A DNA stretch of 64,000 nt, taken from an uncultured Acidobacteriota bacterium. GTDB taxonomy: Bacteria; Acidobacteriota; Thermoanaerobaculia; Gp7-AA8. This document shows positions 1 to 14,283 of the stretch, in pieces. How positions within the stretch are numbered: position 1 is the stretch's first letter; each line of letters opens with the position of its first letter. The translations under genes and the position numbers were made by a program. The notes below the pieces were generated by a model. That model did no database searches and was not told where the DNA came from. It saw only the letters and a list, made by a program, of their open reading frames with translations. Location: positions 480,001 through 544,000 of the forward strand of contig CAVUKB010000005.1 of assembly GCA_963741955.1 (NCBI GenBank). Reading direction: 5' to 3'.

Positions 1-1
1 G

Positions 2-3000
2 TTCCGCATCGGCGACACCATGACCGTCACCTGGAACAACACCGCCGGCGGCGACAACAACAGCGACACCATCAGCGGCGTCACCTTCGACTTCTCCGCG
101 TTCGGCGGAGGTGCTGCCGTCGCGGCAACCAACAGCGCCGGCAGCTGGAGCGCGACCTACACCAGCTCGTCCTGCTCCATCAGCGGGCCGTCCCTGAACG
201 TCTCCGCGACCGCCACCGACGACGCCGGCAACTCCACCACAACCGCGAAGGCCGTCTCCTTCAATAAACTCTCGGGAACGCTCGCCCTCTCCAGCGCGAC
301 CTACTCGGTCAGCGAGAGCGGCGGCTCGGTGACCGTCACCGTCGACCGGACCGGCGGGAGCGATTGCACCGTCACCGTCGACTACGCGACCTCCGACGGA
401 ACCGCAAAGAGCACCGCCGCCGGCACAGGCACGCCCGACTACACCGCGACATCAGGAACGCTGACCTTCAATGCCGGCGTCACTTCACAGACCTTCGCCG
501 TCCCCGTCACCTCCGACGCCGTCTACGAAGGCGACGAGACGTTCACCGTCACCCTCACGAATCCGGGCGGCGGAGCGACGCTCGGCGGCACGGCGAGCGC
601 CACCGTCACCATCGTCGATGACGATCCGGCACCAGCGTTCTCCATCGGCGACGTCTCGCAGTCGGAGGGAGACAGCGGCACCACGGCATTCACGTTCACC
701 GTCACGAAGAGCGGCGCGACCGCAGTCAATGCCACCGTCGACGCGGCGAGCTCGGATGGAACGGCGACGACCGCCGATGCCGACTACGTCGCGCTCGGCA
801 CGACCACTGTCACCTTCGCGCCAACCGACCTCACGAAGACAGTGACCGTCAACGTGAACGGCGACACGACCTACGAGTCGGACGAGACGTTCGACGTGAA
901 TCTCTCCAATCCCACCGACGCCACCATCTCCGACAACCTCGGCGTCGGGACCATCGTCAACGACGACACCGCGCCCTCGTTCGCCATCGACGACGTCTCC
1001 CTCTCCGAAGGCAACAGCGGCACCACCGCATTCACCTTCACCGTCACGAAGAGCGGCACCACCGCCCTCCCCGCCACCGTAGACGTCGCATCCTCCGACG
1101 GGACCGCAACCGTCGCGGACAACGACTACGCCGCCCTCGCAACGACCACCCTCACGTTCGCGCCCGCCGATACGACGAAGACGGTCACCGTGAACGTCAC
1201 CGGCGACCAGCGCGTCGAGCTCGACGAGACCTTCAACGTGAACCTCTCCAATCCCGTCGACTCCACCATCTCGGACAGCCTCGGCGTCGGCACGATTCTC
1301 AATGACGACGCCGCCGGCGTCACCGTCACCCCCACCTCCGGTCTCGTGACGACCGAGGCCGGAGGCACCGCGACGTTCACCATCGTGCTGAATACGCAGC
1401 CTTCCGCTGACGTCACGTTCGGCCTCTCCTCGTCCGACACCACGGAGGGGACCGTGAATCCCGCCAGCGTCACGTTCACCGCCGTGAACTGGATCACGCC
1501 CCAGACGGTCACCATCACCGGCGTCGACGACACCATCATCGACGGCGACATCGCGTACACCATCACCACCGCGCCGGATACCGTCACCGCCGATCCCGAC
1601 TACCGCAATCTCGACCCGGCCGACGTCTCGGTCACCAACACCGACAACGACGCCGCCGGCGTCACCTTCTCGAAGAGCACCGTCAACACATCCGAGAGCG
1701 GAACGACCGACACCTACACCGTCGTACTCAACGCACAGCCAGCTGCAGACGTGACCCTCACCGTCACCTCGGGTGACACCACCGAGGGACTCCTCTCCGA
1801 CTCCGACGAGACGCTCCAGCCGGCAGTGACGCTGACATTCACTGCGGCGGACTGGAACGTCGCTCAGACGGTCACCGTGACCGGTCAGGACGACTCTCTG
1901 ACCGACGGCAATCAGACCTACGCCGTCTCCACCTCCAGCGCGAGCAGCGATTCGAACTGGAACGGCCTCACGATCGCGGACGTCACCGCGACGAACAGCG
2001 ACGACGACTCGCCGGGAGTGACCGTCGCTCCGATCACCGGTCTCATCACCACGGAGGCCGGCGGCACGGCGACGTTCACCGTCGTTCTCAATGCGCAACC
2101 TGCGGCGGACGTGTCGATCGACCTCTCCTCGAGCGACACCACCGAGGGACTCGTTTCGACCAACGGCGTGACGCAGCAGTCGAGCGTGACGCTCACGTTC
2201 ACTCCGGCCGCATGGAACGTCCCGCAGACCATCACCGTCCACGGTCAGGACGACTTCGTCACCGACGGCGATCAGGGCTACGCGGTCACCACGTCCGCCT
2301 CGACCTCGACGGACCCGCTCTGGAACGGACTCACCGTCGACGACGTCTCGGTGACGAACCAGGACGACGAGGTCTCCCAGGTCACCGTCACTCCGACCAG
2401 CGGCCTGGTCACGACCGAAGCCGGGGGCACCGCGACGTTCACCATCGTTCTGACCAGTCAGCCGATGCCCGGAACGGACGTGTCGATCCTTCTCTCTTCG
2501 AGCGACACCACCGAAGGAACCGTCTCTCCGTCGAGCGTGGTGTTCGATCCGACGAACTGGAACGTCCCGCAGACCGTGACGGCGGCCGGCGTCGACGACT
2601 CGGTCGACGACGGTGACCAGCCGTGGACTGTGGTGACCTCGGATGCCATCTCCGCCGACCCGACCTACAGTGGGCTAGGAGTGGCCGATCCGGGCGTGAC
2701 CAACATCGACGACGACTCGCGCGGCGTCACGGTCACCCCGACCAGCGGACTGACCACGACGGAAGCCGGCGGCACGGCCACATTCACCATCGTCCTCGAC
2801 TCGCAGCCACTGGCGGACGTCACGATCGGCGTCGGCTCGAGCGACGGCTCGGAGGGAGCGGTTTCTCCGGCGAACGTGGTCTTCACCGCGGCGAACTGGA
2901 ACGTTCCTCAGACGGTCACCGCGATCGGCGTGGACGATCTGATCGACGACGGCGACCAGGCGTGGACGATCGTCACCGCCAATGCCGTCTCGACCGATCC

Positions 3001-4009
3001 CGCTTACAACGGGCTTCCGGTCGCCGACGTGAGCGCGGTGAATCTCGACAACGACACCAGTGGCGTGACTGTCATGCCCAGCAGTGGACTCTCGACCACC
3101 GAGGCGGGAGGGAGTGGGAGCTTCACGATCGTGCTCGACACTCAGCCTGCGTCGAACGTCACCATCACCCTGAGCTCCAGCGACACCACGGAGGGGACGG
3201 TCTCACCGATCGCGGTGACGTTCACCAGCTCCAACTGGAACGTGCCGCAGAGCGTCACGGTGACGGGAGTGGACGACAACCTCGCGGACGGCGATCAGCC
3301 GTACACGATCGTCACTTCGACGACGGCGTCGGCGGATCCGACGTACGCGGGGCTTGCGGTACCGGACGTATCGGTCACCAACGTCGACGACGAGACGTCG
3401 GCGTCCGACAGCGACGGCGACGGAGTGCTGGACGTGACGGAGAATGCCGGACCAAACGGCGGCGACGCGAACGACGACGGCACCTCGGACTATCTCCAGC
3501 CGCAGGTGGCGAGCCTTCCGCCGGCGAGAGGTGGCGGATATCTGACCGTGATCTCGAGCTGCGAGCTGCGGGACGTCCGGACGCTGACGAAGGACTCGAT
3601 CGCGCCGACGCCTCTCACGTTCCCGTACGGGCTGGTCCAGTTCCGGATGCCGTGCGCGACCGCGGACATGCACATCCTCTATCACGCCGGGAGCGCGTGG
3701 CCGGACGCGACGCAGTACTGGAAACATGGCCCCACCACGCCGGGCGACACGTCGACCACGAAGTGGTACCAGCTCCCGGCCGTGACGTTCGACACGACCA
3801 CCGTGGCCGGATCCACAGTGGCGCGCGCGAACTTCACACTGACGGACGGCACGCTCGGCGACGACACCGGCGTCGACGGGGAGATCATCGACCAGGGCGG
3901 TCCGATCGCGCCCGCCTCGTCCGCCACGGCCATTCCGACCGCGTCGGGATGGGCGCTCCTTCTGATGGCGATGCTCCTCGCCGTGATCGCCGTCGTCCGT
4001 CTCCGCTAA
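2..4009 (+). CDS. Large surface protein/adhesin: Calx-beta domains, ~105-aa Ig-like repeats, choice-of-anchor-like domain and IPTL-CTERM sorting signal (5'-truncated by the window edge)
   Basis: Frame is open upstream of the ATG at 20. Calx-beta motifs (YATSDGTA..DY..GTLTF..E.DETF.V.L.NP); about 7 repeats of VTVTPTSGL.TTEAGGTATFT.VL...NWN.PQTVT; C-terminus IPTASGWALLLMAMLLAVIAVVRLR. Confidence 0.85.
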   Translation, partial: FRIGDTMTVTWNNTAGGDNNSDTISGVTFDFSAFGGGAAVAATNSAGSWSATYTSSSCSISGPSLNVSATATDDAGNSTTTAKAVSFNKLSGTLALSSATYSVSESGGSVTVTVDRTGGSDCTVTVDYATSDGTAKSTAAGTGTPDYTATSGTLTFNAGVTSQTFAVPVTSDAVYEGDETFTVTLTNPGGGATLGGTASATVTIVDDDPAPAFSIGDVSQSEGDSGTTAFTFTVTKSGATAVNATVDAASSDGTATTADADYVALGTTTVTFAPTDLTKTVTVNVNGDTTYESDETFDVNLSNPTDATISDNLGVGTIVNDDTAPSFAIDDVSLSEGNSGTTAFTFTVTKSGTTALPATVDVASSDGTATVADNDYAALATTTLTFAPADTTKTVTVNVTGDQRVELDETFNVNLSNPVDSTISDSLGVGTILNDDAAGVTVTPTSGLVTTEAGGTATFTIVLNTQPSADVTFGLSSSDTTEGTVNPASVTFTAVNWITPQTVTITGVDDTIIDGDIAYTITTAPDTVTADPDYRNLDPADVSVTNTDNDAAGVTFSKSTVNTSESGTTDTYTVVLNAQPAADVTLTVTSGDTTEGLLSDSDETLQPAVTLTFTAADWNVAQTVTVTGQDDSLTDGNQTYAVSTSSASSDSNWNGLTIADVTATNSDDDSPGVTVAPITGLITTEAGGTATFTVVLNAQPAADVSIDLSSSDTTEGLVSTNGVTQQSSVTLTFTPAAWNVPQTITVHGQDDFVTDGDQGYAVTTSASTSTDPLWNGLTVDDVSVTNQDDEVSQVTVTPTSGLVTTEAGGTATFTIVLTSQPMPGTDVSILLSSSDTTEGTVSPSSVVFDPTNWNVPQTVTAAGVDDSVDDGDQPWTVVTSDAISADPTYSGLGVADPGVTNIDDDSRGVTVTPTSGLTTTEAGGTATFTIVLDSQPLADVTIGVGSSDGSEGAVSPANVVFTAANWNVPQTVTAIGVDDLIDDGDQAWTIVTANAVSTDPAYNGLPVADVSAVNLDNDTSGVTVMPSSGLSTTEAGGSGSFTIVLDTQPASNVTITLSSSDTTEGTVSPIAVTFTSSNWNVPQSVTVTGVDDNLADGDQPYTIVTSTTASADPTYAGLAVPDVSVTNVDDETSASDSDGDGVLDVTENAGPNGGDANDDGTSDYLQPQVASLPPARGGGYLTVISSCELRDVRTLTKDSIAPTPLTFPYGLVQFRMPCATADMHILYHAGSAWPDATQYWKHGPTTPGDTSTTKWYQLPAVTFDTTTVAGSTVARANFTLTDGTLGDDTGVDGEIIDQGGPIAPASSATAIPTASGWALLLMAMLLAVIAVVRLR

Positions 4010-4394
4010 AACGCGATCCGCATGGGGGCGCCACGGTTCTCGCCGTGGCGCCCTCGGCGTCACTCCGAGGACCGCAAGCCTGTTTCCTTCACCCATCCCC
4101 GAACTGCAAACTCGGCGGGGAGCAGGCTTATAGCGTGCTCTTTCGTCCCCAACGAGTATGCGCGAATCACCACCGTCCTCCAGCCCGGAGGACGCGAGCT
4201 CGTGCAGCCCCCGGCGTGAGCCGGGGGGGCCGCTCGGGCTCAGAAGAAAAGGTGTGAGCCCCCTGTGAAGGGGGCGGAACGAACGCTTGCGGCAGCACCC
4301 CCGAAACCTGGATTCGAGGCCCTTCCGCTCCCGCCTCGTACCTTCGTCCAAATCCGGCTCTTCAGCCGACGTACCCGCAGATCCCGCCTGACCG

Positions 4395-4598
4395 TCATTC
4401 CCCCGATAGATCCCACACCCGTTCGTGCGGGCGCAAGGCTCGCCTCCGGGCGATCAGAGGGAGGGCGATCCTCTGCAGTTCCACCACGATTCGGACCTTT
4501 TCCGGAAGTGGAAGTGCGCGACGCTCTGCGCGGAGCTCTTCCTTCCCGCGGCGGAGGCGCTCCATCAGTTGCTCCGGAGTCTCCCGACTCGACATCAT
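4395..4598 (-). CDS. Small basic helical protein (67 aa) coupled to the upstream nucleotidyltransferase
   Basis: MMSSRETPEQLMERLRRGKEELRAERRALPLPEKVRIVVELQ...; its ATG overlaps the upstream TGA (ATGA, 4595-4598). Confidence 0.6.
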   Translation of the reverse strand: MMSSRETPEQLMERLRRGKEELRAERRALPLPEKVRIVVELQRIALPLIARRRALRPHERVWDLSGE

Positions 4599-5083
4599 TC
4601 CTCCGGAAGTCGCAGGCCGAATCGCTCGGCCAGTGACACCAGACGTCGCCGATCGACGACGCCGTCCTCCAGCATCGATCGAACCCGGGCAATGCGTTTC
4701 GAAGATCGCGCCGACGACTCCAGTGACAGCGCAGCAAGGTATTCCGGGAGCATGACGCGGACCGGAACACCGTCGTAGTCCAGCGTCGCCGCCGTCTGAA
4801 TCGCCTCCTCCACGAGATCCGAATGCGCCGGGATGACCTGCACGGGTGTTCCGGCGATCATCAGATGTTCGTGCTCTGCCGCATATCCATGGCCTTTCGC
4901 CCAGTCGTAGACGCCGGAGAGGGAAATGCGCGATCCGCTCGCCGGCAGCGTCACGAAGACGTCGAGGTCGAAGGTCGTCACCGGATCGGCCCGGAACGAA
5001 AGCGCCATCGCACCACCGATGGCGTATTCGGTCACGGTCCCATCGCCCCGCATCGCGTTGATCGCCTCGAGAGTTCTCTTCAC
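4595..5083 (-). CDS. Pol-beta-superfamily nucleotidyltransferase-like protein
   Basis: YAIGGAMA...TTFDLDVFV (GG-x-A ... DxD signature); 162 aa. Confidence 0.7.
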   Translation of the reverse strand: MKRTLEAINAMRGDGTVTEYAIGGAMALSFRADPVTTFDLDVFVTLPASGSRISLSGVYDWAKGHGYAAEHEHLMIAGTPVQVIPAHSDLVEEAIQTAATLDYDGVPVRVMLPEYLAALSLESSARSSKRIARVRSMLEDGVVDRRRLVSLAERFGLRLPEE

Positions 5084-5853
5084 TTGTCGACCTTCCGGGG
5101 AGATCCGTCGTGGACCGAAATCCCTCGCCGGATATTATGCCGAATCCTCTCGCGCAGGATACGGAGGTTGCCCGCGTCGTCTCGGAGCCTCGGCCACGCG
5201 GACAAACTCGCCCGCGCCTCAACCCGCGGCGGAAAGTACAAGACCCCTGTCCGCCCTTCCCACGGTCCCCATCCATGCCACGACGACCGTGACCGCCGAG
5301 ACGGGCTGCGGCTCGAAATCGTCGTGGTCTCCGCACGGGCAGGTCGCGCCGCTCATCCCGGACATTCGTGCTCCAAAACTTCGGTACTCCGTCCCCACAA
5401 AGCACCCACTCCCTCGCGCCGCCCTCCTATTCCCGTCCGGGGTCACGTCTTCAGCCGCGGTCCGAGTTCGGTGACAGCGTCAGGGTGAAGGGCAACTCGA
5501 AAGTCGGATTCCACGCCGTAGCCACCCGCCTCGTGCCACGGAGCACCTCACGCCATTGCCACACGTCTCTCCGAGTGCACGCGCCATCTCACCGACAATG
5601 CCGCTCCTCTCGTCTCCCTCGATGGAGGTAAAATGCTCCCAAATGCGACTCCCCCTCGGCGCACTCGCGTACACCGAAGGGGACGGAGTCCGTCCAGCGG
5701 CGGGCGCAGAAGCGGGATCGCCGCTCGAAACCCAGGACGCCTCCGCCGAAACCGACAGTCGATTCCCGCCGACCGTCCCACCGTCGCGCAGCCGCCCTCA
5801 CGCCAGGCCTGGCTCCGCCGAATCCGGAACCGCACCCATTTTCGTGAATCATT

Positions 5854-6027
5854 TTATCGGACCGAAAATGTCCGGACGAAACCGGACATTCCGAAGAACG
5901 AAACGAAGAACCTGTTTCCTTTCAACAGCTTCGACCGAACTATACGAACGGACCGCGGAATGTTATCGGACAAAAACTGTCCGGTTTCACGATTTTCGTT
6001 AGGTCCACTACAATCCCTTAAACAGTA
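5854..6027 (+). promoter_or_regulatory. AT-richer array leader with two 22-bp direct repeats; possible attI/Pc-like region
   Basis: TTATCGGACCGAAAATGTCCGG (5854-5875) and TTATCGGACAAAAACTGTCCGG (5963-5984); GTTAGGT at 5998-6004; CCCTTAAACAGTA just before the GTT at 6028. Confidence 0.35.
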
Positions 6028-6131
6028 GTTGAACGAAGCCGCTGCAGGCGACGAAGACGCGGCACACCATCTGTCGTAAATTGTTTGGCCAGCTCGGCCG
6101 CGTCTTCGCGCCTGAGCTCTATACGTTAGGC
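6028..6131 (+). other. attC-like recombination site 1 (atypical left box)
   Basis: GTTGAAC-GAAGCC-GCTGCAG-GCGACGAAGACGCGGC ... GCCGCGTCTTCGCGC-CTGAGC-TCTATAC-GTTAGGC; paired arms with an extra base in the L box. Confidence 0.75.
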
Positions 6132-6164
6132 GGCGCTAGAATGCTTACCATGAACGGAGGTTAT

Positions 6165-6521
6165 GTGCGACAGATTGTCACGGTTCTTTTCGCCATCTTC
6201 CTGCTTGCCGGTTGCGCCTCGGGTCCTGGTGGCGAGCTTCTGCCGAATGGGACGATCACTCCTTGCGGCGGACACCATACAGACCCGCAAGCCTGCGGCA
6301 ACGCGACATTCAACGCGCGCGTTATCGGGAAAGTCCAGGTCGGCCAGTCGAAGCAAGACGTTCGGGCGATCATGCAGCACGACCCCGAGCGGCGCGAAAT
6401 ATCCGCAAACGTGGAAACTTGGTCGTACATCACGGATTACCCGTCCGAGCTCGTAACGGAAATTGTGTTCACGGACGGCAAAGTTACGGGCCTGAAGCAG
6501 GCGCCGTGGCACACCGACTAG
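6165..6521 (+). CDS. Cassette-borne lipoprotein, SmpA/OmlA(BamE)-like fold
   Basis: GGAGG then GTG; lipobox LLAGC; VQVGQSKQDVRAIM..P...ETWSY...IVFTDGKV pattern; bounded by a perfect 15-bp inverted pair GTTAGGCGGCGCTAG (6125-6139)/CTAGCGCCGCCTAAC (6518-6532). Confidence 0.75.
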   Translation: MRQIVTVLFAIFLLAGCASGPGGELLPNGTITPCGGHHTDPQACGNATFNARVIGKVQVGQSKQDVRAIMQHDPERREISANVETWSYITDYPSELVTEIVFTDGKVTGLKQAPWHTD

Positions 6522-6525
6522 CGCC

Positions 6526-6648
6526 GCCTAACTCATAGGACTCTTTACCGCATCCGAACTGGCACGGCTCACGTTCGCGCGGTGAGTGTCAGGACGCGGA
6601 GGTCGCGTTCGCTCGCCTAACAGGATGCGGAAAAGAGTTCAGTTGGAC
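6526..6648. other. attC-like hairpin site 2 (atypical; fits in either orientation)
   Basis: GCCTAAC..GGACTCTTTACCGCATCC ... GGATGCGGAAAAGAGTTC.A.GTTGGAC (arms 16/18 complementary); the bottom strand reads GTCCAAC...GTTAGGC. Confidence 0.6.
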
Positions 6649-6892
6649 GAAGCCGCGACGCCATGGGTGGAGTATCGAAGCGGGAGGGCGGCGGAGGGAG
6701 TGGCCGGCGGACGAATCGATGCCGAAGCGCGCGATTCGAGCGTGAATAATCGCGATGATGGGCATGATTCGGCCCGTGTTGCGAGGCGGGTCGGTCGGCG
6801 AGACGTCGCAAAACCGACGGACGCGCAGAGCTGCCGCAGAGCAACCGGATTCGGCCGTCGCAGGATGTCGAGGCGAATGGTCATCGCGAGTC

Positions 6893-8026
6893 TCATGAGC
6901 TATCGAACCACGTCCTGGGGATGTACGGGGCGACGCGCGCGATGATCGACATGACGCCGGTGCCGCATTCGGGACAGAGACGTTGCGGCGCGGGCCGAGG
7001 ATCGCGCGGGCGCAACTTCGAAGCGATCATGTTGCGGGCGAGCTCGATGTTGTGGTGCCGGAGGCGATTGGCGAGGAAGCCAAAGTAGCGGATCCTTACG
7101 AATCGCGACGGGACGATGTGCATTGCGAAGCGGCGGAGGAACTCTGTCGCCGTGAGAGTGGCAGTCCTGGCGGCGTAATGGTTGGCGTAGTCGTGCCACG
7201 TGAACGTGACGCTCTTACCGTCGAAGGCCAGAATGCGGCGGTTGCTGATGGCAATACGGTGCGTATAGGACGATAGATAGGCGAGCACCTGATCCGGTCC
7301 ACCGAACGGCTTCTTGACATAGGCGTGCCAGTCGGTGCGACACGAGAGGCACAGAAGCTGTTCGAGCGCGGGGGCATCGGGAATCGACGGCGGCAGGGTC
7401 ATCTCTCCACTCGCGAGTGCTTCGCGGATGGCGGTCGTGACGAGCGAGCGGAAACGACGCGAGATGACCTTGACGGCGAGTAGGAACGAGAGCTTGCGCA
7501 CGCGCACCCATCGCGCGCCGTCGAGCGAGAAGCCGCCGCCGGTGACGACGCAATGGACATGCGGATGAAACGGCAGCTGCTGGCCCCAGGTGTGGAGCAT
7601 GGCGGTGACGCCGAGAGTCGCTCGGAGCTTGGTCTGGCCGACGTCGATGAGCGCGCGGCCTGCTGCGCGGAGCAGGATCGCATAGACGACCGCCGGCGCG
7701 TGAATCGCGAGCCCATTGAGCTCCTCGGGGATCGTGAAGGCGGCGTGGAAGTACGGCGTTGGGAGTACCTCGCTGCGGCGCGCCTCGACCCACGCGGCTC
7801 GCGCCGCAGCGCCACAGAGAGGACAGTGGCGGTTGCGGCACGAGTTCCATTGCGTCTGCTCGTGACCGCAGGAGGCGCAGCGATTGCGATGGCCGCCGAG
7901 AGCGGGCGTGCGGCAGTCCGCAATTGCGCGGAACGTGCGGAGCTGGTGCGGAGACAGACTCTGCGAAGCGAGCAGCTCTCCGGCTTTAGCGCGCACGATC
8001 GCACCGAGAGTCGGCGCGGAGTCCAT
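6893..8026 (-). CDS. IS91-family (Y2 HUH) transposase with N-terminal Zn-binding domain
   Basis: CRTPALGGH..CASCG..NSCRNRHCPLC; LHTWG; HUH motif HPHVH; YLSSY; RIRYFGFLAN; C-terminal CPEC. Confidence 0.92.
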   Translation of the reverse strand: MDSAPTLGAIVRAKAGELLASQSLSPHQLRTFRAIADCRTPALGGHRNRCASCGHEQTQWNSCRNRHCPLCGAAARAAWVEARRSEVLPTPYFHAAFTIPEELNGLAIHAPAVVYAILLRAAGRALIDVGQTKLRATLGVTAMLHTWGQQLPFHPHVHCVVTGGGFSLDGARWVRVRKLSFLLAVKVISRRFRSLVTTAIREALASGEMTLPPSIPDAPALEQLLCLSCRTDWHAYVKKPFGGPDQVLAYLSSYTHRIAISNRRILAFDGKSVTFTWHDYANHYAARTATLTATEFLRRFAMHIVPSRFVRIRYFGFLANRLRHHNIELARNMIASKLRPRDPRPAPQRLCPECGTGVMSIIARVAPYIPRTWFDSS

Positions 8027-8030
8027 CGAC

Positions 8031-8879
8031 CTAACGCTTCTTTGGGGGCGTGATGTGATCGAGTGGGCTGCCGATCTTGCCGGGCGTCACGTGCGTATAG
8101 GTCTGGGTGGTGCGGAGGTGCGCGTGCCCCATCGCGACCTGAATCATCGGCATCGGCTCGCCCTGCTCCATCAGATGCGTGGCGAAGGAGTGGCGCAGGG
8201 TGCGGTGACAGACGTGCTTGGTCAGGCCGGCGCGGCGCACGGCGATGCGTAAGGCGCGCTGGAACGTGGAGTGGTTGATCGGCCGGGAAGGATCCTTCCG
8301 GATGGGGAACAGCAGATCGCGAGGACGTGTCTCCCGCCACCACTCGCGCAGCAGCTCGAGGGCGATCGGCGAGAGCGGCGCGTAACGATCCTTGAGGCCT
8401 TTGCCCTGCCGCACGCGGATGAGCATGCGCGAAGAATCGATGTCGCCGACCGAGAGCCGGCACACTTCACCAAGGCGCAGGCCGGCCGAGTACGTCACGG
8501 TGATGAGTACGCGATCGCGCAGAGTCTCGGCGGCATCGATGAGCCGCAGGACCTCCTCGGGGGCCAGGACGACGGGAAGGCGACGCTCGCGGTGCATGAA
8601 GGGGATGCGCTCGACCATCTCCTCGCGCCCCAGGACCTTGCAGTAGAAGAGGCGGAGTGCGGACATCACCTGATTGAAGAAGCTGAACGAAGCGTGACGC
8701 TCATCGCGAAGGTGGAGCTGATAGGTGAGGATCTCGTTAGGACCGAGCGTGTCGGGAGAAGCATGAAAGAAGGCCGCGAACTTCGCGACCGCGCCGAGGT
8801 AGGTCTTCTGTGTCCGTTCCGAGTAGTTGCGGACGCGCATGAAGTCGTGCATCCGTTGACGAAGGGGTGAAGTGGCCAT
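8031..8879 (-). CDS. Tyrosine recombinase with integron-integrase-like N-terminal SAM domain (no IntI-specific insertion)
   Basis: RNYSERTQKTY; RLPVVLAPEEV; GLRLGE; GKGLKDR; TLRHSFATHL; MGH; TQTYTHV; 282 aa. Confidence 0.92.
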   Translation of the reverse strand: MATSPLRQRMHDFMRVRNYSERTQKTYLGAVAKFAAFFHASPDTLGPNEILTYQLHLRDERHASFSFFNQVMSALRLFYCKVLGREEMVERIPFMHRERRLPVVLAPEEVLRLIDAAETLRDRVLITVTYSAGLRLGEVCRLSVGDIDSSRMLIRVRQGKGLKDRYAPLSPIALELLREWWRETRPRDLLFPIRKDPSRPINHSTFQRALRIAVRRAGLTKHVCHRTLRHSFATHLMEQGEPMPMIQVAMGHAHLRTTQTYTHVTPGKIGSPLDHITPPKKR

Positions 8880-8985
8880 GACCGATCTCCTTTCATTGAG
8901 ATTCGGTCAGTGGATCACCCCGGACCCTTCGTCGCTACCCGCGCACCCGCCGGGAGGCCGGGCGGCTATGCCGCGCAGCGGCTTC

Positions 8986-9091
8986 GTTCAACAAGCGCTT
9001 GCAGTGGTCCCGGCCCGCTTCGTTCCTGCGTGGCAGCTGGTTTACCGTTGCGCGTCGCGGGCCGGGCGGCTGAGGCGCTGGTCCGTTGGGC
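8986..9091 (+). other. attC site 3
   Basis: GTTCAAC-AAGCG-CTTGCAG..CCCGGCCCG ... CGGGCCGGG..CTGAGG-CGCTGGTCC-GTTGGGC. Confidence 0.8.
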
Positions 9092-9140
9092 TGACCGAAG
9101 GACGGCGCGAAATCAGAAACGTGTGAGAACATCATCTCCG

Positions 9141-10181
9141 ATGTACCCGCCACGTCCGCCCGACATTCGCGTTCGGCAGAACGCAGTCGAAGCTCCTCAT
9201 GTCGTGATTCTCGGCGCGGGAGCAAGCATCGCGACCTGCGTGAAAGGCGACCGGGGCGGGCGTCGGCTGCCGGCCATGGGCTCTCTCGTCGATGTTGTGG
9301 GACTTGGACCACTTCTCGATGCCGCCGAGATCCCTCTCGAGCAAAGATCGGACCTTGAAGAGTTGTACGGTTCCATGCTTGCCGACGCGCGTTTGCTTGA
9401 CCTGCGCCATGCGATTGAGATCAAGATCAAAGAGTACTTCGACGACATCGAGCTCCCGCGCGCGGTTACGCTGTATGACGAGCTTCTTCTTACGCTCCGC
9501 CGGAAGGATCTTGTCGCCTCGTTCAACTGGGACCCCCTTTTGATTCAGGCATTTCACCGCAATCGGCACCTTCGTGAGCTCCCCGAAATTGCATTTCTGC
9601 ACGGCAATGTTGGCGTTGGCGTGTGTCTCAAAGATCGCCGCAATGGTTTCTTTGGTGGTCGATGCGGCGCGTGCGGCGAGCTCTACGAGCAGTCGCCGCT
9701 CCTGTATCCAGTTGCCGACAAGCGGTATGACGAGAATCCTTTCATATCAAGCCAGTGGGCACGGCTTGAATCAAAGCTGAGCGACGCATTCATCGTGACC
9801 ATCTTCGGATACTCGGCGCCGGTATCCGATGTGCGAGCCCGTGAGCTCATGCATCTGGCTTGGAACGCGAATGGAGCGCGAACTCTCGCCGAGATCGAGA
9901 TTGTTGACATTCGACCGAGACGGGCACTGGTAAAGAGCTGGGAGCAATTCATAACCGGTGGCCACTATTCGATTCGAAAGCGCGTATCCGGTACCTTGGC
10001 GTTCCGTTTTCCGCGACGGAGTTGCGATGCATGGGGCTGGGCGGTGCTGCAGAACGATCCGTGGCGAGAGCGTCCACTGCCACGCTACGGCCGCCTCGAT
10101 CGCCTGCAACGATGGTGTGAACCGCTTGTAGTCGAAGAAGCTGAACACTATGACCGCGGAATGCCGCTCACGCAGTGGTGA
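9141..10181 (+). CDS. Cassette-borne SIR2-like domain protein (candidate NADase/defence effector)
   Basis: VVILGAGAS, SFNWD, FLHGNV, IFGYS motifs plus C..(RCGAC) putative Zn site; flanked by GTTGGGC (9085) and GCCCAAC (10191). Confidence 0.75.
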   Translation: MYPPRPPDIRVRQNAVEAPHVVILGAGASIATCVKGDRGGRRLPAMGSLVDVVGLGPLLDAAEIPLEQRSDLEELYGSMLADARLLDLRHAIEIKIKEYFDDIELPRAVTLYDELLLTLRRKDLVASFNWDPLLIQAFHRNRHLRELPEIAFLHGNVGVGVCLKDRRNGFFGGRCGACGELYEQSPLLYPVADKRYDENPFISSQWARLESKLSDAFIVTIFGYSAPVSDVRARELMHLAWNANGARTLAEIEIVDIRPRRALVKSWEQFITGGHYSIRKRVSGTLAFRFPRRSCDAWGWAVLQNDPWRERPLPRYGRLDRLQRWCEPLVVEEAEHYDRGMPLTQW

Positions 10182-10190
10182 GAGCCGGCA

Positions 10191-10293
10191 GCCCAACTTT
10201 CGCACTGCACCGGCCGTGGGCCCGCACCGCGGCAAGCGAAAGAGTACAATCCCCGTGAGCGGGTCCACGCCGGTGAGCGCGGAAACGTTGGGC
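10191..10293 (+). other. attC site 4
   Basis: GCCCAAC-TTTCGC-ACTGCAC-CGGCCGTGGGCCCGC ... GCGGGTCCACGCCG-GTGAGC-GCGGAAAC-GTTGGGC; 103 bp. Confidence 0.88.
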
Positions 10294-10311
10294 GGCAGGA
10301 GCCACATTCGG

Positions 10312-10644
10312 ATGCAAAAAGCCAAGACGGTGACGGCGGCGGTATTTGGCGTGGGCTTGCTCGCCCTCGCCGCGCTCACGTTCGCGGAAGCTCGTGCCGC
10401 GCACCTCAGTCCGTCGGAATATCACTTTGGAAGCGAAGCTATGCTCTTCCACGGCGGCTGGATCTATCAGTCGCAGGCCTCGTACGTTAGGACGACCTTG
10501 CTGGAGGGAAGTTTGTTCCTAGCCGCGGGGGGCGCCTCGGTAGCGTTTGTTTTTCTAAAACGGTGGCCGTACGCAGCGATCGCACTGATCGCGGCGCTCG
10601 TCGGAATCGGTGTCCATCTCAGTGCAATCGTGCCGGCCGCGTGA
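10312..10644 (+). CDS. Cassette-borne small membrane protein (110 aa, ~3 TM)
   Basis: AGGAG before the ATG; hydrophobic segments; bounded by GTTGGGCGGCA/TGCCGCCCAAC (perfect 11 bp). Confidence 0.7.
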   Translation: MQKAKTVTAAVFGVGLLALAALTFAEARAAHLSPSEYHFGSEAMLFHGGWIYQSQASYVRTTLLEGSLFLAAGGASVAFVFLKRWPYAAIALIAALVGIGVHLSAIVPAA

Positions 10645-10648
10645 TGCC

Positions 10649-10752
10649 GCCCAACTCGCAGTCGCACCGGACGCCGACCGCTGCGTTACTCCCCTCCCGG
10701 TTGTGTCATCATCGCGCGGCGGACAGCGCCGGTGAGCGCCGAGCCGTTGGGC
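10649..10752 (+). other. attC site 5
   Basis: GCCCAAC-TCGCA-GTCGCAC-CGG ... CCG-GTGAGC-GCCGAGCC-GTTGGGC; 104 bp. Confidence 0.8.
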
Positions 10753-10755
10753 GTC

Positions 10756-11150
10756 ATGACCCCCACAATCACCCAATCACCACGCGGCCCCTGACCGATG
10801 ATGAACTGCGCCTCGCCCGCTGGATGCTCGAGAACGGCGGTCCCGACGCACGCGCCTACCTCAGTCAACTCGAGGCATCAGAGGCGACAACGTGGCGTTG
10901 CCCCTGCGTCTGCGCGAGCTTCAACTTCAAGGTGCAGGGGAGGCAGGAAGCTCCTCCCGGTGTGCACATCCTCCGGGACTTCGTGTTCGGTTCTGAAGCA
11001 AACCTCTCGGGCGTATTCATTTTCGAAAGCAATCGCACCCTCAGTGGAGTTGAAGTCTATGGGTTGGCCGGGGATGCGCCAGCTGCCCTTCCGGAACCAG
11101 GGTCGCTTCGTCCTTGGGGCTCGCACCCGGAGGTGTCGATGAAGATGTAA
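10756..11150 (+). pseudogene. Last cassette ORF of unknown function; probable 5' frameshift, no closing attC
   Basis: The ATG at 10756 is out of frame with the protein-like RPLTDDELRLARWMLENG..CPCVCASFNF..GVFIFE..GVEVYG; a C run follows the ATG; next in-frame ATG is 10824. Confidence 0.5.
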
Positions 11151-11190
11151 AAGTGACCCACTGCGAAGTAGTAAGAGTTGACCACCTGAG
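11134..11190. mobile_element. Isolated IS21-like terminal sequence (remnant)
   Basis: TGTCGATG...GTAAAAGTGACCCA...AGAGTTGACCACC: TGT start plus two tandem binding-site-like repeats; no istA/istB nearby. Confidence 0.45.
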
Positions 11191-11292
11191 GGGAAGGGGC
11201 TCCGCCGGGGAGAGAGGCACGGGCGACCGTGCTGGGTGATGATTCCTCCGTCCGGAGGCGAGCGGAGCGAGCCGGAGGGCGCGAGGGGGCAG

Positions 11293-12082
11293 AGTCAGGC
11301 CTTCGCCCGTCGGCTCTGTTTGCTAAGTATTTGACACGACCTCACTTCGAGGTACGTTTCGCTGCGCACAATCCTGCGACTGCCACAGCCGGATCGCCGA
11401 TCTGGACCCACCGAGGAAGGCTTGCGGAGACGCCGACGATTCTATGAGGAGTAGAATCCACGGCGTCTCGTGAAGCCCAGGGTTTCTCGAGCCCATGCCA
11501 CGATCCACTTCGCCTCGGGTTCCCGGCGCGATCTTCCACGCCCCTGCGCACAAGGAAGTTCCGAAATGCCAATTACTTCTGAATGGTAACCAACAGGCAG
11601 AGCCCTGACTCTACTCACCCCGAGACAACATCGAAGGATCGCGTCATTTCTACGGAAAAACCTTCCGCCTTCGCCGCGGGTCATCGGAGAGTACTCGACC
11701 GATACCGATTCGGGGTTTGTTCAGGCCGGCGAACAACGTCTCGAGGCGAACGGAGCGATGAACGTGAAATCGGATTTTCGATCGTTCTATCGGCTGGTAG
11801 GCTTTCTCGAACTCGCTCTTGAAATTCCTGATCCGTACGAGAGGGCAGGGTCAGGCCTTCGCCCGTCGCTCTTCACGATGAGTGTCGGAGCGTTCGCCCG
11901 GGTGGAGCACGCTGTGAGAGCGCAGGGTCAGGCCTTCGCCCGTCGGCTCTGTTAGCTAAGTATTTGACACGACCTCACTTCGACGCACGGTTCGCTGCGC
12001 AGAATCCTGCGACTGCCACAGCCGGACCGCCGATCTGGACCCACCGAGGAAGGCTTGCGGAGACGCCGACGATTCTATGAGG
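11293..12082 (+). repeat. ~155-bp direct repeat pair (about 11293-11448 and 11927-12082) with a partial third copy at ~11848-11868
   Basis: GTCAGGCCTTCGCCCGTCGGCTCTGTT.GCTAAGTATTTGACACGACCTCAC...GACGATTCTATGAGG occurs twice with few substitutions. Confidence 0.9.
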
Positions 12083-12296
12083 GGTGGAATCTCGTTTCGC
12101 TGCTTTCGCGGCCTGCGGCCCCGAGACAGCCTCCTGGCTGGCGCTCGGCCGCAGCCGCTGAGCAGCAAACCGTCAGGGGCTCGGAAGCCGCCTTCGGCCA
12201 GGCTTTTATTACTATTCCATTCACCGTTCCCAGCGCGGGCGTGGCACCTGATCGGCCACTTTTGGACCCCACATCCGAACGAGTCACAGGAGAATC

Positions 12297-12926
12297 ATGA
12301 GCAAACTGTTCGTCAACATCGCGCTCAGCCTCGACGGCTACATGGCACCGGAAGGAATGACCATGGAGAACCCCGGGTATATGAATTGGGGCGCCAAGTG
12401 GGGCGCGCTGATGGCCTGGCTCCTCAATTCGCAGTACTTCCGCGAGATCCTCGAGCTCGGCCCCGGGGGAAAGACCGGTCCGGTCAACGACATGGTTCGC
12501 TCCACGTTCGAGCGCACCGGTGCCAACATCATGGGGAAGCGTATGTTCGACCAGGGTGAGGTCAGTTGGCCGGAGGAAGCTCCGTTCCACACCCCGGTCT
12601 ACGTCCTCACCCACCAGAAACGAGACCCCTGGGCACGTCCGGGCGGAACCACGTTCTACTTCATCAACGAAGGGCCCGAACGCGCGCTCGCGCTGGCTCG
12701 GGAGGCTGCTGGCAGTCGTGACATCCGCATTTCAGGAGGCGCGGATGTGATCCAGCAGTACTTGAACCTCGGTGTCGTCGATGAGCTGGAAATTGCCTTG
12801 GCGCCCGTGTTCTTCGGCGGCGGGCGACGACTCTTCGAAAACCTCAGCGAGCCCGGACCTCAGTTTCGCATCGACAAAGTTCTCGATGGTCCGGCCGCAA
12901 CGCACCTGCGATACGTGCATAAGTAA
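12297..12926 (+). CDS. Dihydrofolate reductase/RibD C-terminal family protein
   Basis: SLDGY, IMGKRMF, PVYVLTH, ISGGA..IQQYL..G.VDEL..APVFFGGG.RLF. Confidence 0.9.
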   Translation: MSKLFVNIALSLDGYMAPEGMTMENPGYMNWGAKWGALMAWLLNSQYFREILELGPGGKTGPVNDMVRSTFERTGANIMGKRMFDQGEVSWPEEAPFHTPVYVLTHQKRDPWARPGGTTFYFINEGPERALALAREAAGSRDIRISGGADVIQQYLNLGVVDELEIALAPVFFGGGRRLFENLSEPGPQFRIDKVLDGPAATHLRYVHK

Positions 12927-13809
12927 GCGTCACAGCAATTGCGGAGCAACTGAAGGCTCGGCGGTGCTGGTTCAGGATACCCGGTTGACCCGATACCTGG
13001 TGTTCGGTGGTTTCGAGTACACATTTCGATTTCCGCTGCCATTCTGTCGTCCGTGTGCGCCGACGATTCGGAGACGACCTGCATCACCACTCCACCAGCT
13101 GATGGTGTTCGGCGTTTCTTCGTCATCGGCCTCTAGATCGATACGATCGTCGGCATCCTCCTCCGGTCGTCGATCCTGATCGACCGTCCGTGGCCGTGTA
13201 GTCCATCTTCGCTGTCGGCGCGGCTGAAGCGATGGCCATCGATTACGCCTTCGCATTCATCCTTGGACTCGCCCTCACGAAGATCCGCCACTCACGACAT
13301 GTCGTCCGCTTCGCGGACTCCATGACTTTCCTGCCGTCTGCCCGTTCCCGGGGCTCACGCCCCGGGCTACAGATATATCGTCCGCTTCGCGGACTCCGTC
13401 AACCAGCGCTGCAACCGACCCACACGGCGCTGCGCCGCGCCACCAATCGATCGGAGATCTCTCCATTGTGCCACTGCCAACTCAGCATCACCCGTGTCCC
13501 GGCCAGAAACGGAGCGAAACGCCAGAACCACGCGAGCGTCCAGGCGTAAGCCGATGCGGGAGTGCATGAAAGGAACGAACGGCGGGGTACCGCCACCGGT
13601 GCCCCTCCGTTCGAATGCTTCTGTCACAGGCATCCTCTCGATCCGCTCCGAACGCGAGCGTCGCGGCGGCTTGCAAGTCCGCACTCCATCCGCTCAGAAG
13701 GCGATGATCGCAGCGGACTGCAGATCCGCACTCCACCCGCCAGCGCTCGGCTCGGTCCCTCCACCCGCCGATGGCCGCTCTCTCGAAGAGCCGACGATCG
13801 ACTGCCGGC

Positions 13810-14283
13810 TCACGAGACGCGCTCCTCCCGCCCCCGCGGCTCGTACCCTCCTACCTCCGTGCGGAATGAGATGGCGAGACGGTTCCACCCGTTGATGGTG
13901 ATCACCGCCATCGTCAGATTCACGAGCTCGCCCTCGTCGAAGTATTGTCTCGCTTCCTCGTACAACGCGTCGCTGACTCCGCCCCGCCCGATCTCGGTCA
14001 CCGCCTCCGTCCACGCGAGAGCTGCGCGTTCCCGCGGCGTGAAGAATGGCGTCTCGCGCCAGACCGGGATCGCGTAGAGACGCTGCTCCTTCTCCCCCGC
14101 CGCGCGTGCATCCTTCGTGTGCATGTCGACACAGTAGGCGCAGCCGTTGATGTAGGAGGCGCGCAGTTTCACCAGCTCGAGCAACTCGTGCTCGAGCCCA
14201 CAGCCGTCGACGTACTGCTGCATCGCAAACATGGCGCGGTACGCGCCGGCGTGGTCGTTCGAGTCATGGATTCGTTCGGACAT
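13810..14283 (-). CDS. Carboxymuconolactone decarboxylase/AhpD-family protein
   Basis: ELVKLRASYINGCAYCVDMH; FTPRERAALAWTEA; INGWNRL. Confidence 0.92.
   Translation of the reverse strand: MSERIHDSNDHAGAYRAMFAMQQYVDGCGLEHELLELVKLRASYINGCAYCVDMHTKDARAAGEKEQRLYAIPVWRETPFFTPRERAALAWTEAVTEIGRGGVSDALYEEARQYFDEGELVNLTMAVITINGWNRLAISFRTEVGGYEPRGREERVS

Follow-up and report, generated by a model that had tools for sequence, protein, structure and literature searches.

Integron integrases (IntI) are unusual in that they recombine folded single strands, and the origins of this ability and of attC sites are open questions. According to the accessible part of one source (10.1101/542381), the tyrosine recombinases of IS91 and IS3 elements belong to an "integron-like" subgroup, are devoid of the IntI-specific insert and count among the closest homologs of IntI. 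For IS91, IS801 and IS1294, the accessible portion of PMC13181058 places a palindrome, terIS, upstream of the transposase gene tnpA, and oriIS, with one or two palindromes, downstream of it; a CTTG, GTTC or GTCC target word adjoins oriIS, and in IS801 and IS1294 terIS is cleaved at GTTC. No target bases are duplicated, and single-stranded circles, the functional intermediate, are the only form that inserts. Two other types of mobile DNA, the IS1111-attC group of the IS110 family and the group IIC-attC introns, home to attC, and the introns also insert in the opposite orientation (accessible parts of PMC9229058 and PMC7923331). Here we analyze a stretch of 64,000 nucleotides, referred to throughout as the window, from an uncultured Acidobacteriota bacterium (GenBank assembly GCA_963741955.1, contig CAVUKB010000005.1, positions 480,001 to 544,000 of the forward strand), which contains an intact two-gene element of 2460 bp on the minus strand at positions 6533-8992. 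Judged from its sequence and from that of its relatives, this element is probably an intact member of the IS91-family subgroup whose Y2 HUH transposase gene is preceded by a recombinase gene. Its clade would use the R-box boundary of attC and attI sites for insertion, and the element would move through IS91-type rolling-circle transposition of single-stranded DNA.

Architecture of the element and its two proteins

The element and the host box next to it consist of the following parts, with positions given for the window.

6533-8992, minus strand: whole element; conservation with the homologous loci L011-L015 and with metagenome copies begins at GTTGRAC and stops at CCTATGA
8970-8992, minus strand: left end, comprising the left inverted repeat (IRL) GTTGAACGAAGCCGC and a small terIS-like palindrome, GCCGC-TGC-GCGGC; kept in homologs across phyla
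8031-8879, minus strand: Xer/IntI-like tyrosine recombinase of 282 amino acids, recognized by Pfam and alignments, with NCBIfam matches below cut-off
6893-8026, minus strand: IS91-family Y2 HUH transposase of 377 amino acids, recognized by Pfam, NCBIfam, the motifs HPHVH and YLSSY, and a Cys-rich N-terminus
6642-6656, minus strand: internal inverted repeat (IRR) GCGGCTTCGTCCAAC, an R''-like box found by inverted-repeat search, motif scan and comparison with homologs
6533-6641, minus strand: terminal hairpin B, an oriIS-like end that closes with CCTATGA (stem 6540-6555 / 6623-6638)
6526-6532, plus strand: host R'' box GCCTAAC (GTTAGGC on the strand of the element), the target word at the hairpin end, complementary to the start of its own cassette and variable at positions 5-7 among homologous insertions

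Read along the minus strand, the element opens with GTTGAAC (8992-8986), continues with the open reading frames (ORFs) of the recombinase (8879-8031) and, after a gap of four bases, of the transposase (8026-6893), and ends with IRR, which follows the transposase ORF after a spacer of about 236 nt, and the hairpin, beyond which GTTAGGC (6532-6526) is found. In its general form, the order in the clade is GTTGRAC-GAAGCCGC with the small palindrome, recombinase, transposase, an inverted copy of the repeat reading GCGGCTTC-GTYCAAC, a hairpin of about 110 nt, and CCTATGA; the inverted copy in the window, at 6656-6642, reads GCGGCTTC-GTCCAAC. The element has the outline of a cassette: GTTGAAC at one side, and GTCCAAC, the hairpin and GTTAGGC at the other.

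The transposase matches the IS91 and Y2 models over their full length. Pfam recognizes the domains Y2_Tnp (2.3e-53) and Zn_Tnp_IS91 (5.5e-30), the NCBIfam model for IS91 family transposases, NF033538, is matched with 367.8 bits at a cut-off of 125, and the HPHVH and YLSSY motifs are intact. Together with this Y2 HUH enzyme and its N-terminal zinc domain, the element displays palindromes at both of its ends and a target word that is not accompanied by a duplication, and it follows the word rule of IS91 elements with GTTR, since GTTG stands at its start and GTTA beside its hairpin end.

The recombinase carries the Pfam domains Phage_integrase and Phage_int_SAM_4, and its best matches are models of the Xer and integron-integrase type, all of which stay below their cut-offs. 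It reaches 181.3 bits with TIGR02249 (cut-off 265), and the true IntI of the same genome attains 466 bits. Its match to the integron-integrase profile falls into two pieces that skip positions 173-236, and in a BLASTP alignment with the genome's own IntI (33% identity) gaps are located at the IntI-specific insert (...ALERKYPNAGREWPWQWVFP...); hence, the additional domain that IntI proteins have within their catalytic domain was not found in the recombinase. Arg or Lys replaces the His of the IntI H-x-x-R motif in four of five aligned recombinases (..RTLRH.. vs. ..HSFRH..); in the window protein a His is present one residue before this position. At the remaining catalytic positions (R, K, R, H, Y), the aligned proteins do not differ.

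An earlier note on this DNA, written from the letters of the window, had described a single, cassette-like mobile unit at these coordinates with an IntI-like recombinase. Its statements on ends, gene order, hairpin and flanking words are all accurate, as are the delimitation of the unit as 6533-8992, borne out by ends and a hairpin that are conserved in homologs, and the cassette-like outline with GTT bounds, R-like boxes and a 3' hairpin. The relationship of the recombinase to IntI stands as well, but without the IntI-specific insert. The contrast that the note drew between inverted-repeat ends and the ori/ter ends of IS91 is false, as the ori/ter scheme of ordinary IS91 elements accommodates these ends, too.

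Homologs and conserved ends

Homologs of the recombinase were present in six of the 60 relatives searched, and in all six further loci (L011-L016), which stem from five of these six relatives, the recombinase gene is followed by an IS91 transposase gene. L011-L015 retain both repeats, left and internal, together with the stem of the hairpin and a terminal CCTAT(G/A)A, and the flanks differ. As the hairpin and both repeats are retained in the homologous pairs, the hairpin is part of the element. Recombinase and transposase pairs were found at 26 of the 80 loci of a wider scan, in taxa recorded as Gemmatimonadota, Acidobacteriota, Planctomycetota, Pseudomonadota, Bacteroidota, Firmicutes and one archaeon; these wider pairs share the same layout, with a terminal repeat and small palindrome, two genes, an inverted copy of the repeat and a hairpin.

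The right ends permit a view of the adjoining DNA that is independent of the search pattern, since the metagenome scan made use of 17 letters of the 3' arm of the hairpin and excluded the GTT that follows; it returned 80 loci, of which 11 are true ends and the others chance matches. These 11 ends and seven from genome loci were aligned (n = 18; together with the copy L227 there are 19 clade ends). GTT follows the right end in 18 of 18 cases and GTTAG in 16 (GTT(A/G)G in all 18); positions 6 and 7 of the word vary (GGC, GAC, GCC, GGT). In L227 the right end is likewise followed by GTTAGGC, and L125 and L179 have an identical hairpin loop and different flanks past GTTAGGC. Because the words of L015 and of the window are each complementary to their own host site, the word after CCTATGA is host DNA. 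Scanning 401 genomes of the phylum with the pattern yielded matches in four genomes, and one new copy was gained.

L011 and L151 are elements with 87.5% identity and different right flanks; to the left of GTTGAAC (L011:2808-2880), they resemble each other over about 50 nt (48 of 74 aligned positions). This likeness may stem from DNA carried along by read-through of the left end, or from a shared type of target. The genome of the relative G004 holds two copies of the element and five places that exceed the integron-integrase cut-off, the reading frame of one place containing a TGA; one further match is partial.

Other delimitations of the mobile unit were considered and rejected. A plain cassette with reversed genes between two complete attCs (6526-6648 and 8986-9091) is at odds with the homologs, in every one of which the hairpin at 6533-6641 travels with the genes and the segment 8993-9091 does not. 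A unit extending over 6028-8992 between the perfect 18-bp repeats would include the lipoprotein gene and attC A, which are absent from the homologs, and attC A is a normal host attC. An inversion between the same 18-bp repeats, when undone on paper, results in an implausible head-to-head pair of attCs.

Insertion sites of the clade

Since attC scans by regular expression and folding were too noisy in this genome of 63% GC, we relied on a covariance model, R1, that was built from 11 attCs of the same genome, four of them from the window and seven from beside IntI. R1 clearly separates the strands (e.g., 77.5 bits on the plus and 27.7 bits on the minus strand for attC D). In five loci, R1 detects an attC that directly adjoins the left end of the element; compared with the host attC, the element is inverted in four of these loci and direct in one:

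window: 55.5 bits with R1, inverted
L012: 69.5 bits with R1, inverted
L159: 62.4 bits with R1, inverted
L179: 22 bits with R1 (weak), inverted
L015: 65.7 bits with R1, direct

When the element is taken out, the flanks rejoin into an uninterrupted attC with zero duplicated bases. In the window, the left flank joined to GTTAGGC forms a hairpin closed by GCCCAAC/GTTAGGC, the ordinary attC of the lipoprotein cassette that the earlier note had expected from the deletion, and the stretch 8986-9091, as it stands in the window, scores 55.5 bits; the rebuilt empty sites of L012 and L015 fold as hairpins, too. The boxes of L015, GGCTAAC/GTTAGCC, are perfectly complementary; GGCTAAC marks the distal edge of the attC that adjoins the element. 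Five more ends are located in arrays. The one in L013a comes after the remnant of an intI gene with a frameshift and, as a direct insertion at the attI side, shares the orientation of the downstream attC. L013b and L227 abut GCCCAAC and GCCTAAC, respectively, after a cassette ORF and in inverted orientation; an intact IntI is found 4.3 kb away from L227, beyond two R1 sites. L143 and L158 have, like the window, an attC on the opposite strand, 360-480 nt past the right end. In the inverted cases, the element separates the host R'' box from the attC spacer, and in the direct case it sits just before R'; in all placed cases it lies 5' of the GTTAG-type word that closes the hairpin on the coding strand of the element. 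This word is either the box at the 3' side of an attC strand, with the remaining attC adjoining the opposite end of the element, or the attI crossover. There is thus a good case that the clade inserts at the R-box boundary of attC and attI sites, in either orientation. Relatives recur at attC or attI boundaries, in support of the attC targeting proposed in the earlier note; its view of an inverted insertion at the R'' box is correct for the copy in the window but does not hold as a fixed orientation, given the direct copies at the attC of L015 and at the attI side in L013a.

Could the element simply be an integron cassette with the recombinase and transposase genes as cargo, moved by the host IntI through hairpin B as its attC? 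Its outline, with a TTGAAC start and a hairpin bounded by GTCCAAC...G and then TTAGGC, is the one expected of a cassette, the genomes concerned possess IntI genes, and the direct copies at the attC R' of L015 and beside the intI remnant of L013a are what IntI would yield. However, most placed insertions are inverted (window, L012, L159, L179, L013b and L227, as well as L143 and L158 by context), and an inverted insertion demands a top-strand exchange at R''. IntI strongly disfavors this exchange, and the host IntI is therefore an unlikely agent for the inverted majority. In addition, hairpin B is not matched by the host attC model, and the layout of repeats and hairpin is also encountered in relatives at non-attC sites. 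We consider this explanation very improbable.

Several observations weigh against homing to attC by an IS91-type element. R1 was fitted to a single attC family, and boxes derived from the element occur in two of the sequences used to train it. By this model, nine of the 19 clade ends are without an attC (L011, L014, L145, L151, L153, L177, L178, L125 and L109); most of them lie on contigs of 3 kb or less, and L011, L014 and L145 have usable flanks. L011 is a candidate for a direct insertion into a long attC, for which R1 gives just 17 bits, 63 nt off. The element is present in a single copy in its own genome; the contigs of three runs from one study, which are uninformative in this respect, contained no joints across the element, no circle and no empty allele, and in the run that is the probable source, the contig passes straight through the element. 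HUH cleavage 5' of GTT and a tyrosine-recombinase crossover at G|TT predict identical junctions. Furthermore, a relative with about 50% identity in the recombinase on the Mesorhizobium plasmid NZ_CP080530.1 (L229-L232), annotated as tyrosine recombinase and IS91 transposase, is found in three 100% identical copies whose flanks are not attC. Two of these copies begin with GATTGAAC, the third differs in 5 nt before AACTAAGCC, and the right ends read ...CTCCA followed by GATTCC in all three. Their non-attC sites and different terminal word indicate that homing to attC characterizes the clade with GTTGRAC ends and not the family as a whole, and the identity of the three copies indicates that the recombinase-bearing family is active. 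By eye, no attC targeting was seen in L036, L067, L028, L049 and others, nor in the Mesorhizobium copies.

The frequency of the target word has to be weighed on the same side. GTTAG occurs at 527 sites of the 5.4 Mb genome, 56 of which fall within the 30 kb of the integron and its array, and for GTTAG[GAC]C these numbers are 127 and 32; as GTTAG is rare in the genome and enriched in attCs, a preference for the word alone would yield 11-25% attC hits. The transposase might then recognize no structure at all and need nothing besides a GTTAG-type word, which is concentrated in the arrays of GC-rich genomes; IS91 members pick their targets by a tetranucleotide, as the accessible part of PMC13181058 has it. 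Against this explanation stands the finding of an attC box or an array at 10 of the 19 clade ends, a proportion above the 11-25% expected from the word, with an expectation that derives from one genome and with loci some of which share ancestry. On balance, recognition of the word alone appears quite unlikely to us.

Repeats, terminal hairpin and predicted circle junction

The 15-bp inverted repeats of the element, GTTGRACGAAGCCGC, are identical at 14 of 15 positions between IRL and IRR, and at 17 of 20 when extended. With up to two mismatches, this sequence occurs four times in the window, compared to 0.56 occurrences expected, and none of 100 shuffles reached four. A third exact copy is located on the plus strand at 6028-6042, as part of an 18/18 inverted match to 8975-8992; it had been omitted from the earlier note. 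The repeats resemble R boxes (GTTRRRY / RYYYAAC), are specific to the recombinase-bearing subgroup and co-vary from element to element.

Hairpin B has stem arms of 16 nt (6540-6555 / 6623-6638) with 94% complementarity, and among the 14 sequences compared, nine of 14 stem pairs show compensatory changes. Its arms are of equal length, without any asymmetry. R1 matched hairpin B on neither strand, and an Rfam search of positions 4000-14000 returned nothing on the hairpins. This hairpin, which is part of the cassette-like outline drawn in the earlier note, falls outside the host attC family. For the circle junction, folding with DNA parameters predicts a single hairpin of -45.5 kcal/mol (z = -5.5 against 200 shuffles), in which IRR and IRL are paired at 14 of 15 positions; the junction is accordingly predicted to be attC-like, with R-like boxes at the foot of the hairpin. 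Plain IS91 logic leaves the internal repeat unexplained, and the pairing of IRR with IRL at the foot of the hairpin makes it likely that the repeats are sites for the recombinase or a guide to the cleavage site. The recombinase probably binds the two inverted repeats.

Versions of hairpin B are also found without the two genes. One of them, L109:963-1105, is fully symmetrical and flanked by GCCCAAC/GTTGGGA, another one, L158:3856-3991, directly adjoins the start codon of an unrelated gene, and in L143, L153 and L178 only the 3' half is left.

These features bring a pathway with two enzymes into consideration, in which the HUH transposase would do no more than peel off or replicate a single-stranded circle and the element's own recombinase, a sister of IntI, would exchange the attC-like junction with a folded attC strand or with attI. 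The R-box-like, subgroup-specific and co-varying repeats speak for it, as does their position on either side of the circle hairpin, where 14 of 15 positions pair, and the junctions are compatible with a crossover at G|TT. IntI prefers attI as its partner, and L013a is found at an attI side, just as a solo IRL is found at the attI-like crossover of the window. IS91-borne recombinases are, moreover, reported to be among the closest IntI homologs (10.1101/542381, accessible part). Yet a second integrase is not needed, since IS91 TnpA alone inserts single-stranded circles according to the accessible part of PMC13181058. Also contrary to such an exchange, the arms of the hairpin are equal and without extra-helical bases, the feature that gives attC its strand choice, four of the five aligned recombinases have Arg or Lys in place of the H-x-x-R His of IntI, and the Mesorhizobium relative inserts outside attC. 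A joint action of both enzymes is possible, yet unlikely.

The integron array around the element

Seven features of the window surround the element, all of them on the plus strand.

5870-6030, plus strand: attI-like site that opens an intI-less array (context, outside the element); 82% identity over 68 nt to the region 3' of the genome's intI
6028-6045, plus strand: solo copy of IRL at the attI-like crossover, fused to attC A; 18/18 inverted match to 8975-8992
6028-6131, plus strand: host attC A; 85.7 bits with R1, A belonging to the R1 training set
6165-6521, plus strand: ORF of the lipoprotein cassette whose attC took the insertion; in-frame GTG after GGAGG, LAGC lipobox
8993-9091, plus strand: rest of the interrupted attC C, with spacer, L'', loop, L' and R' GTTGGGC; R1 8986-9091, 55.5 bits, plus strand only
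10191-10293, plus strand: host attC D (context); 77.5 bits with R1
10649-10752, plus strand: host attC E (context); 70.6 bits with R1, plus strand

In the window, R1 detects attC A, C, D and E with 55-86 bits, all on the plus strand, which is also the strand of the cassette ORFs; near IntI it detects about 35 sites, all on the strand of intI. The attCs of the window array are of the same family as those of the genome's integron. The window itself contains no intI; a single full IntI (C5:852424-853368) is encoded in the genome, 364 kb away from the element. Besides its main block of similarity, the attI-like site has a second, weaker one, and the similarity stops at ...TAGTT. No remnant of intI was found upstream of the array in positions 1-13000 of the window, where tblastn with the genome's own IntI matched the recombinase of the element only, and the ORFs at 4240-6002 had no Pfam match. 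With an attI-like site present and no intI remnant upstream, the array is an attI-like site followed by cassettes that has lost its own integrase. The proposal of the earlier note that the element might build or shuffle the array without an IntI is unsupported, considering that a full IntI and attCs of the same family exist 364 kb away and that the window array starts with a homologous attI-like site. The solo IRL at 6028-6045 may be the relic of an earlier direct insertion at attI that was later deleted via a shared GCTGC.

With its first bases, at 6125-6139, the lipoprotein cassette can pair with 6518-6532. This complementarity between the cassette start and its own R'' side extends over 26 nt with 85% (6114-6139 / 6518-6543), reaching 8 bp past the 7-bp box; the repeats of the element likewise extend 8 bp past the box, and in the neighboring cassettes the extension is 3-4 bp. 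The genome's integron (G000:C5:827000-853400; L220, L221) has its array 3' of intI in an "inverted integrase" layout, and the same is true for the one in contig C23 of G004 (L227). Just beyond the last attC, a non-coding direct repeat of 176 nt with 94% identity (11283-11458 / 11916-12091) had no Rfam match, and positions 13347-13395 match the Acido-Lenti-1 small RNA with 37.6 bits at a gathering score of 37.

A model for the movement of the element

The data lend support to a model for an IS91-type element whose target is an integron attachment site. The element would transpose in a rolling-circle, single-strand fashion, with the hairpin and the adjacent GTTR word as oriIS, and with GTTG and the small palindrome as terIS. 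The single-stranded circle would then be joined to a folded attC strand, next to the (Y)TAAC/GTTAG word at its base, a target whose shape would be that of the element's own hairpin end or junction. Because the target on the transferred strand, (Y)TAAC and then a hairpin, resembles this junction, either attC strand would be usable, in keeping with the occurrence of both orientations. Since the element supplies R-like boxes of its own, an insertion leaves two complete hairpin sites, from which its cassette look arises, and the element may behave as a cassette. For the recombinase, definition of the ends, integration and resolution are candidate roles.

A more far-reaching view is that recombinase-bearing IS91 elements are a self-contained cassette system for single-stranded DNA and a sister to integrons. 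In such a system, the HUH transposase would make a single-stranded circle, the junction would fold like an attC, and the IntI-sister recombinase would join it to attC or attI; if termination at the left end were missed, the RYYYAAC of the next attC could substitute as a stop, and neighboring genes would be carried along with the hairpin. The solo or remnant hairpins beside unrelated genes (L158, L109) and the left-flank likeness of about 50 nt between L011 and L151 are compatible with this view, which we nevertheless regard as unlikely. If it were true, such an element could move or create cassettes independently of IntI, and it would offer a living model for the rise of integron recombination on folded single strands.

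What we believe with reasonable confidence to be new is a recombinase-bearing IS91 element that is specialized on integron attC and attI sites. It pairs a recombinase from the group reported to be closest to IntI with an enzyme that makes single-stranded circles, its predicted junction is attC-like, and attC and attI crossovers are the places where it occurs. With its two small genes and a site of 150 nt, it makes three questions testable: does a relative of IntI without the IntI-specific domain already act on hairpins, are IS91-type elements able to mobilize or generate cassettes, and do they disrupt or stabilize arrays? A practical consequence is that cassette annotation by hairpin searches can mistake such elements for cassettes.

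Comparison with known systems

With the IS200/IS605 elements, whose Y1 HUH transposases move DNA by "peel and paste", the element shares single-stranded intermediates, which are predicted in its case, subterminal hairpins and a target word that adjoins one end and is required again for later excision (accessible part of PMC5027513). Those elements, in contrast, have a Y1 transposase that lacks a zinc domain; they carry no recombinase and are not linked to attC. The likeness to IS91, IS801 and IS1294 is much broader: it comprises the transposase family and its motifs, a terIS-like palindrome upstream and an oriIS-like hairpin downstream, a short word that the left end shares with the target beside the hairpin end (GTTG/GTTA here, GTTC in IS801 and IS1294), and the lack of a target duplication. 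In place of the orf121 of IS91, however, the element has a tyrosine recombinase gene, and it differs from the IS91 family in its 15-bp inverted repeats, one of which is internal, and in a target word that is the start of the integron GTTRRRY box, its sites being the feet of attC and attI hairpins.

The recombinase-bearing IS91 subgroup is known from entries of ISfinder, which have the same order of recombinase and IS91 transposase and, in the accessible part of 10.1101/542381, an "integron-like" recombinase without the IntI insert; unlike the element, the Mesorhizobium plasmid relative (about 50% identity) resides outside attC. Our search of full-text literature retrieved no account of the layout of IRL, IRR and hairpin, of an attC-like circle junction, or of recurrent insertion at the R-box boundary. 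In the same full-text literature, attC-targeting IS91 elements are not described beyond one remark on the IS91-like ISShvi3, which we take to carry a recombinase.

Integron cassettes and IntI share with the element the GTT boundaries, first bases that are complementary to their own RYYYAAC box, an imperfect 3' palindrome, and an insertion that regenerates two complete hairpin sites; the recombinase of the element is, in addition, related to IntI. In contrast to cassettes, the element has two genes for its own mobility, is mostly inverted in the array, and possesses a hairpin that lies outside the host attC family and whose arms are not unequal; its recombinase differs from IntI by the missing IntI-specific domain (181 bits vs. 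a cut-off of 265). The DEDD transposase of the IS1111-attC group and the ribozyme and reverse transcriptase of the group IIC-attC introns are unrelated to the enzymes of the element; both groups use other insertion points within attC, and neither of them mimics cassettes or carries a relative of IntI. On a conservative reading, the element described here would take its place beside them as a third kind of attC-homing element.

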